Below are positions 42,266 to 42,699 of a stretch of DNA of 64,000 bases, one piece after another (the stretch's first letter is position 1; every line of letters starts with the position of its first letter). A model generated the notes under the pieces. The model did not search any database. It saw only the letters and a program-made list of their open reading frames with translations, and was not told the DNA's origin. Source of the stretch: Eledone cirrhosa (Eukaryota); NCBI GenBank assembly GCA_964016885.1, contig OZ024758.1, positions 4,464,001-4,528,000 of the forward strand, read 5' to 3'. The translations under genes were made by a program, and so were the position numbers.

Positions 42266-42310
42266 ATATACGATATTAACAAATGGACAATATATTTATA
42301 AAACCATATT

Positions 42311-42375
42311 TATTTCATTATACATATTTCAAGGACACCAAGTTAAATTATGGTGTGCTTTCATCAGACAAAATA
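42311..42375 (-). ncRNA. Minimal type-I hammerhead ribozyme motif, best preserved (family H-E)
   Basis: UAUUUUGU-CUGAUGA-AAGCACACCA(UAAUUUAACU)UGGUGUCCUU-GAA-AUAUGUAU-A-AUGAAAUA. Stem I has 8 bp including 2 GU; stem II has 9 of 10 pairs. Confidence 0.78.
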
Positions 42376-42699
42376 TAATATAGATCAGTTTTATAAATAA
42401 ATATTGACATACCCTTAAAAAATGCAACTGTTGGAAGCTCCCGGATATATATATATATATATATATATAAATAAGATTTCAAAGGAGCAGCATTGCTAGA
42501 CAATGGTGTTTACTTTGAACCTCCGTAAGAATTACATTAATGGCTCATGTATTAAGGCGAAAGCAGCGATTCTTTGCTTAAACTTTAATCTGTTATTTTA
42601 ATAAATATTTGCTCTTATATTTTTGATATATATTTATCCTTATCGAGCCCTCTTTGGATTTTAGTCTTCAAATTTATTATTATTCCTATATATATATAT

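Follow-up and report, generated by a model that had tools for sequence, protein, structure and literature searches.

A type I hammerhead motif in a very abundant repeat of Eledone cirrhosa, likely the 5'-truncated 3' end of a Penelope-like element

Described hammerheads closest to H-E

The hammerheads of metazoan Penelope-like elements, in their pseudo-LTR, palindromic-helix-III variant (Cervera and de la Pena 2014, PMC4209133), combine the type I order with a long helix II and a small palindromic helix III, and they occur as many dispersed single copies with high within-family variation. The same features are found in H-E and its repeat family. H-E (42287..42408, minus strand) is a real type I hammerhead motif with an intact core; all coordinates given here are positions in the window, the 64-kb stretch of Eledone cirrhosa DNA that was analysed. 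H-E differs from the minimal hammerheads of PMC4209133 in helix I, which is 4–5 bp there and 8 + 6 + 12–17 bp in H-E, and at the base of helix II, where a G10.1-C11.1 pair and an unpaired base after A9 are replaced in H-E by an A-U pair and no unpaired base. One variant of the H-E family (record 10 of X8, one of the public runs introduced below) carries changes that give both G10.1-C11.1 and the unpaired base after A9. The elements of PMC4209133 are Penelope-like, whereas no Penelope-like ORF is linked to the H-E family.

The Hydra-clade Penelope-like elements, which include Hydra-1_Obim (Craig et al. 2021, PMC8557442), resemble H-E in their TA-repeat target, in a hammerhead near the 3' end and in a near-palindromic stem III of 8–10 nt. 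Stem III starts with AC in 26 of 26 Hydra rows, which have GUH triplets, but with AU in H-E, which has the triplet AUA. Hydra-1_Obim itself was considered as the source and rejected, its hammerhead sequence being different, and short motifs from the family core and right end had 0 matches in the part of the PMC8557442 supplement that was examined. A literature search on Penelope-like elements, cephalopods and hammerheads returned PMC8557442 only.

PAc (Poseidon) of Anolis (Frangieh et al. 2024, PMC11167929) has its hammerhead upstream of two 3' end points, as the H-E family does, and provides a model for a protein-assisted ribozyme. However, the PAc ORF starts at stem II, while around the H-E ribozyme every ATG meets a stop within 13 codons and no reading frame starts in the ribozyme region. 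Animal non-LTR retrozymes (PMC7229834; bioRxiv 10.64898/2026.07.22.740005) are likewise short, non-coding, self-paired and low in GC, with a type I hammerhead. They differ from H-E in forming tandem units and RNA circles; no tandem unit was seen for H-E.

The H-E hairpin and its repeat family

The hairpin is composed of the following features, all on the minus strand.

42361..42367, minus strand: core C3-A9 (CUGAUGA); among the listed family differences only position 7 varies
42327..42330, minus strand: core G12-A13-A14-A15.1; no listed family variant
42331..42360, minus strand: stem II, strands 42360-42351 and 42340-42331, 9/10 pairs
42320..42327, minus strand: stem III segment AUAUGUAU; 2 bp and a tetraloop as a monomer, 8 bp including two G-U as a dimer
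42318..42319, minus strand: predicted cleavage site after the AUA triplet, by hammerhead numbering
42368..42382, minus strand: stem I 5' strand; 8 bp, then the single-base bulge at 42376, then 6 bp
42305..42318, minus strand: stem I 3' strand, pairing with 42368..42382
42388..42406, minus strand: upstream arm of the inverted repeat and distal portion of stem I, set off from the proximal part by a 5-nt bulge (42383-42387) that varies; no break in family depth over the arm
42288..42304, minus strand: inverted repeat, downstream arm; most of the family differs at 42288 and 42290

The residues required of a type I core (C3 U4 G5 A6 N7 G8 A9, G12 A13 A14 A15.1, U16.1 and H17) are all present, with C3-A9 at 42367-42361, G12-A15.1 at 42330-42327, U16.1 at 42320 and A17 at 42319. 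Three helices surround the core and helix I is open; stems I and II pair and covary, and the 2 bp of the monomer stem III are both A-U. The preliminary description had recognized the complete core, an 8-bp stem I, a 9/10-bp stem II, a near-palindromic stem III and a predicted cut between 42319 and 42318 on the minus strand, after AUA, and each of these is borne out as described. The 8 contiguous pairs of stem I include two G-U wobbles (positions 2 and 3 from the core) and are followed by a 1-nt bulge at 42376 and 6 further pairs that the description had lacked. Stem II has 9 of 10 pairs, with a mismatch of C42357 and C42334 at the fourth position, an A-U base pair at 10.1/11.1 and a variable loop of 10 nt (42341-42350). 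Stem III forms 8 of 8 pairs in the dimer register, two of them G-U, and hammerhead numbering places the predicted cut at the same position.

H-E is the sole descriptor match in the 64 kb at each of four stringencies. A site with stems I and II of at least 6 pairs arose in 0 of 300 dinucleotide-preserving block shuffles, and 9 of 300 gave a site at the loosest setting (stems of 4 and 4). A chance motif in AT-rich DNA would agree with a hairpin energy z of only -1.4 and with the lack of a hammerhead in Rfam, both among the 150 of 250 matches listed for the whole window and among the 2 matches to 42200-42440 at E up to 10. However, such a motif would be expected neither from the shuffles nor from a family in which the core is kept and pairs are compensated; its probability is negligible, and the family data described next already refute it. 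We identify H-E as a hammerhead on the basis of its anatomy, the shuffles and the family variation.

Twelve public runs matched, nine of them with part of the stretch, and seven were examined (X1, X4, X6, X7, X8, X10 and X12). None of the twelve is on record as RNA, which speaks neither for nor against expression. One subfamily dominates the two RAD libraries, X10 and X12, and this biases any share taken from them. The H-E family is a very abundant repeat, with summed depths that are not copy numbers: reads on 42245-42456 number 29,743 of 12,467,656 in X10 and 37,753 of 12,647,150 in X12, and contigs number 3,432 of 16,285,364 in X1 and 3 in X8, while the wider stretch 41950-42750 has 60 contigs in X4, 1 in X6 and 23 in X7. 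The family may already be catalogued, for instance in Repbase or Dfam.

Among the 40 of 58 family differences listed, the 30 inside the hairpin were classified and the 10 outside it were left out. Fourteen of the 30 occur at unpaired places (13 in loops or bulges and 1 at the free core position 7), 9 keep a pair alone, 2 keep a pair together with a change of the partner, and 5 break a pair; the private outer end of the inverted repeat accounts for 2 of the 5. For the differences listed, 16 of 88 paired positions are variable against 11 of 20 unpaired non-core positions (Fisher p = 0.0014, with a structure drawn on the H-E copy and positions that are not independent of each other). Both compensated pairs are on one X8 contig (42359/42332, A-U to G-C, and 42355/42336, C-G to U-A), which also has one pair-breaking change, at 42338. 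The invariant core is spared in all listed variants. As regards a tertiary contact between loops 1 and 2, loop II and the stem I bulge vary in the family, and only the C-C mismatch of stem II is kept.

The H-E copy is not decayed: near-identical contigs exist in X4, with 1 difference over 42302-42386, and in X6, with 4 over 42284-42413. Nor is it the most stable variant: both stem I wobbles and the stem III wobble are Watson-Crick pairs in 35–62% of X1 depth, and the palindrome becomes perfect where A replaces G at 42323, a change carried by 35% of the depth in X1 and by 48% of the first-mate-plus reads in X10. ADAR-type editing was considered as a source of the variation and rejected, with no clear asymmetry between T>C and A>G places (11 vs 8 in X10, 9 vs 8 in X12). 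A pattern scan for homologues found 0 loci in metagenome contigs and 0 in viral contigs. Relaxing the pattern brought up 3 loci in metagenomes and 1 in genomes, which had no likeness beyond the pattern and were dropped as chance; one looser-pattern locus, L001, sits in a bacterial-type coding frame. No second copy of the family was found within the 64-kb window, where the 3' extension carried by other family copies (see below) gives 7 two-mismatch matches against 4.3 expected and likewise no second copy.

The short inverted repeat that had been reported to bracket the motif is real, although the span given for it was 1–2 nt wider than the arms at 42288-42304 and 42388-42406. In the predicted fold these arms stack on stem I, for 8 + 6 + 12–17 bp in all. 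At 42288 and 42290, 92–99% of family depth (X1, X10 and X12) has other letters; these two family-rare changes within three bases (42288-42290) lengthen the inverted repeat in the H-E copy, and could stem from template-switch correction of a quasi-palindrome or from a minor subfamily.

The inverted repeat is the outer part of the long stem I, and hence of the family's own RNA hairpin, rather than a fold-back insertion, because the family runs past it on both sides, with 39 family bases beyond the upstream arm and 17 beyond the downstream arm. The preliminary description had seen in it a repetition of the fold-back layout, that is, a miniature fold-back in which an inverted copy of the 3' part is added at insertion, like 29701-30147 or 46574-46947. 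True fold-backs do occur in the window (159-nt arms, 97%), and a few family reads have strand-switch joints, mostly with 3–9 reads per joint. However, depth stays level through the upstream arm, the repeat lies inside the element rather than at its ends, and diverged contigs from five runs join the core to the upstream arm and continue beyond it (among them X1 records 5-8, X8 record 11, X4 record 11 and X6 record 17). The fold-back layout is thus not supported here, and a fold-back origin is improbable, being already largely refuted for the H-E locus; an ancient event of this kind may have occurred in the ancestor of the family.

The insertion and its source element

The hairpin is part of a short insertion between two TA tracts.

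42271..42445, minus strand: whole insertion of ~175 bp, likely a Penelope-type element's 3' end that was truncated on its 5' side, with a short 3' end and no tail; family depth runs from 42261 and fades by 42447
42261..42270, no strand: (TA)5 at the 3' junction, from the sequence
42446..42469, no strand: (TA)12 at the 5' junction, from the sequence

As both ends of the insertion, 42271 and 42445, blend into TA, each is placed only to within a few bases. On the left, at the 3' end, 6105 X10 and 8681 X12 reads pass straight into a TA repeat, like the H-E copy. An alternative 3' end, present in at least 10,963 X10 and at least 10,750 X12 reads with 415 loose-end rows outside those listed, consists of a shared extension that the H-E copy does not carry; ~25–30 of its bases are visible within the 30 loose letters shown per end, which stop short of its full length and far end. 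On the 5' side, near 42426, the family carries about six bases that the H-E copy lacks. X8 record 11 and X1 record 8 run on past 42447-42449, one X8 contig having non-TA letters there, and X10 first-mate-plus depth drops from 172 to 9 between 42437 and 42456. The H-E insertion is thus truncated at its 5' end, as is described for Penelope-like elements.

A piece of an older repeat (42184-42266), whose other copies are found at 698-886, 7770-8017, 52247-52496 and 59421-59631, is cut at the H-E junction, and its continuation is missing on the right, so no clean target duplication can be read. The locus has no inverted 5'-truncated copy, which is an optional feature of Penelope-like elements.

A Pfam search of 162 of the 180 longer reading frames in the window, with those over the LINE ORF left out, found no RT or GIY-YIG ORF (0/134 and 0/28) and no host gene. 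The only coding match in the window is this LINE-type ORF (14098-17292, minus strand), which is uninterrupted for 1064 codons, has endonuclease (APE), RT and C2H2 zinc finger matches, and is unrelated to H-E. The possible end of an upstream ORF in the 30 loose letters of one X8 contig was rejected, as its frame hangs on one ambiguous base, its stop is not common to the variants and a motif search turned up no match.

Penelope-like elements are described as 5'-truncated and TA-targeting, with an optional 30–40-bp tail (PMC8557442) that corresponds to the stretch between two reverse-transcription starts (PMC11167929). Truncation, two 3' ends and TA flanks together form the pattern of Penelope-like element ends. 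In our reading, H-E sits in one 175-bp copy of a repeat with a high copy number. This copy is likely a 3' end, truncated on its 5' side, that the enzyme of a Penelope-like element wrote into a TA tract, and its hammerhead is predicted to cleave itself only weakly unless a second copy or a protein stabilizes stem III; we assign this reading a probability of roughly three in four. In such an insertion, a GIY-YIG endonuclease would nick the TA tract, reverse transcription would begin 3' of the ribozyme, at the closer of two possible starts, leaving no tail, and it would stop after ~175 nt. The transcript would fold into a long interrupted hairpin (stem I of 8 + 6 + 12–17 bp) carrying the core. 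As a monomer, with only two A-U pairs in stem III, the ribozyme would be mostly open, and the 8-bp helix of the palindrome would form only in a double hammerhead or with the help of a protein. With neither an ORF nor a same-strand partner in the window, the H-E copy is most likely a relic and a dead end in which the ribozyme is still correct.

The main alternative, possible but on balance unlikely, is that the family is instead a non-coding, non-LTR retrozyme, with a self-paired circular RNA unit of 170–400 nt, and that H-E is a partial monomer pasted in by Penelope-like enzymes. The long stem I would then be part of a rod-like circle and the monomer would be active. This alternative shares its mode of insertion with the truncated Penelope-like end and differs from it in the source element. 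It would account for a long self-paired stem I that is kept across the family and for the absence of a frame starting in the ribozyme region. Retrozyme circles are highly self-paired, one from mussel cleaved at ~0.1 per min without the usual tertiary nucleotides (PMC7229834), and solo monomers and a Penelope-like origin have been described (bioRxiv 10.64898/2026.07.22.740005). However, the tandem hammerhead units of 170–400 bp that characterize retrozymes are not seen in the window, where H-E is a single copy with no tandem partner at the locus or elsewhere. Moreover, 6105 of ~17,000 listed 3'-end reads in X10 and 8681 of ~19,400 in X12 stop in TA, favoring dispersed insertions over long arrays, and no head-to-tail joint is listed, although a unit longer than the stretch would show none. 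We consider it very improbable that H-E is a MITE with terminal inverted repeats at TA in which the hammerhead is incidental. The element is short, has an inverted repeat and is flanked by TA, but its repeats are internal rather than terminal, its ends are unequal and variable, and its variable positions respect RNA pairing, G-U included, and leave the catalytic core untouched.

Other hammerheads in the window and predicted activity

The window contains other hammerheads, two of them in a true fold-back (46574-46947) with 159-nt arms (97%), one in each arm (46682, minus strand, and 46839, plus strand), and a longer right end. The claim that H-E is the best-preserved hammerhead holds by descriptor; however, the descriptor rejects the U-U base of stem II in the 46839/46682 pair, a feature common among published Hydra-clade hammerheads (PMC8557442), and the palindrome of 46839 is the stronger of the two (-7.2 vs -2.2 kcal/mol). 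In both H-E and the 46839/46682 pair, the fourth position of stem II is a C-C mismatch and the next two pairs are A-U and C-G; AU...AU in stem III and the AUA triplet are also common to them. This likeness may be a lead that is new. The local score between H-E and the 46839/46682 family is weak, being reached by 64 of 2000 shuffles, and MAFFT left the cores out of register.

Two further cores with poor stem I pairing were observed: one at 29935 (plus strand), enclosed by a fold-back (29701-30147), and one at 62159 (~62140-62210), which has the same stem III as the 29935 core. A second very abundant repeat family (42544-42678) lies beside H-E and starts close to a GAAA box that may be the 3' half of a further hammerhead; a small fold-back copy of this family is found at 45054-45246.

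H-E had been put forward as the top candidate for activity, which is overstated: its stem III has two A-U pairs, the base of its stem II is A-U, it has no tandem partner, and published metazoan Penelope-like hammerheads are weak alone. We predict that H-E would self-cleave only weakly alone. Pair probability in stem III is at most 0.001 and the active two-dimensional fold makes up ~1e-4 of the ensemble, in a model that ignores core contacts and was run with no positive control. The modelled gain from dimer formation is small or absent (-36.4 vs -35.0 kcal/mol for a 106-nt construct, 42290-42395, and -28.6 vs -30.6 kcal/mol for an 82-nt construct, 42303-42384); a 175-nt hand-built dimer without the flanking pairs is not comparable. 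The correct stem I register was found in a fraction of 0.42 of 2000 sampled folds for the 106-nt construct and 0.89 for the 82-nt construct.

Published observations bear on these predictions. Metazoan Penelope-like hammerheads are mostly single motifs, the one single Schistosoma motif that was tested did not cleave, and G10.1-C11.1 is called highly conserved (PMC4209133). The anole Penelope-like hammerhead cleaved only with protein (PMC11167929). The AUA triplet is ranked below AUC and GUC (PMC8879150), and a review describes it as much slower (PMC3138052). On the other side, the H-E core is conserved across the family, compensatory 10.1/11.1 changes occur in a cricket satellite hammerhead family (PMC2837043), and invertebrate retrozyme hammerheads with a 2-bp helix III and a tetraloop cleave as monomers (PMC7229834). 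A further point in favor of H-E is that no long fold-back surrounds it, in which it would pair with an antisense copy of itself, whereas the 46839/46682 pair would fold back on itself. For naked RNA in 10 mM Mg2+, we judge that detectable cleavage of a tandem dimer would be fairly likely, that detectable cleavage of the monomer would be somewhat less likely than its absence, and that fast monomer cleavage, above 0.1 per min, would be a surprise.

A more speculative idea, which we regard as unlikely, is that H-E is a conditional module in which the long interrupted stem I traps the monomer, the C-C mismatch at the fourth stem II position and the following A-U dock stem I or a protein of the element, and cutting takes place only in the retrotransposition complex. 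The mismatch and the A-U of this module are kept in H-E family variants and are also present in the different 46839/46682 family. A literature search combining hammerheads, retrotransposons and the C-C mismatch, with the supplements and figures of the Penelope-like papers mostly outside its range, returned one paper, on R2 HDV-like ribozymes.

The surrounding DNA is AT-rich and microsatellite-rich. It also holds a dispersed repeat of ~186 bp, 85–93% alike, with at least 10 whole or partial copies in the window, including the following.

4163-4351, 11678-11862, 24579-24765, 34255-34443, 40823-41161 and 52744-52933: copies of the ~186-bp repeat

Published work already describes hammerheads at Penelope-like ends and in non-coding derivatives of such elements, and the weight of the H-E locus in itself is modest. 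The family is a small test piece for whether metazoan Penelope-like hammerheads need a dimer or a protein in order to cut, and natural variants of stem III, of the stem II base and of the first stem I pairs are on hand.
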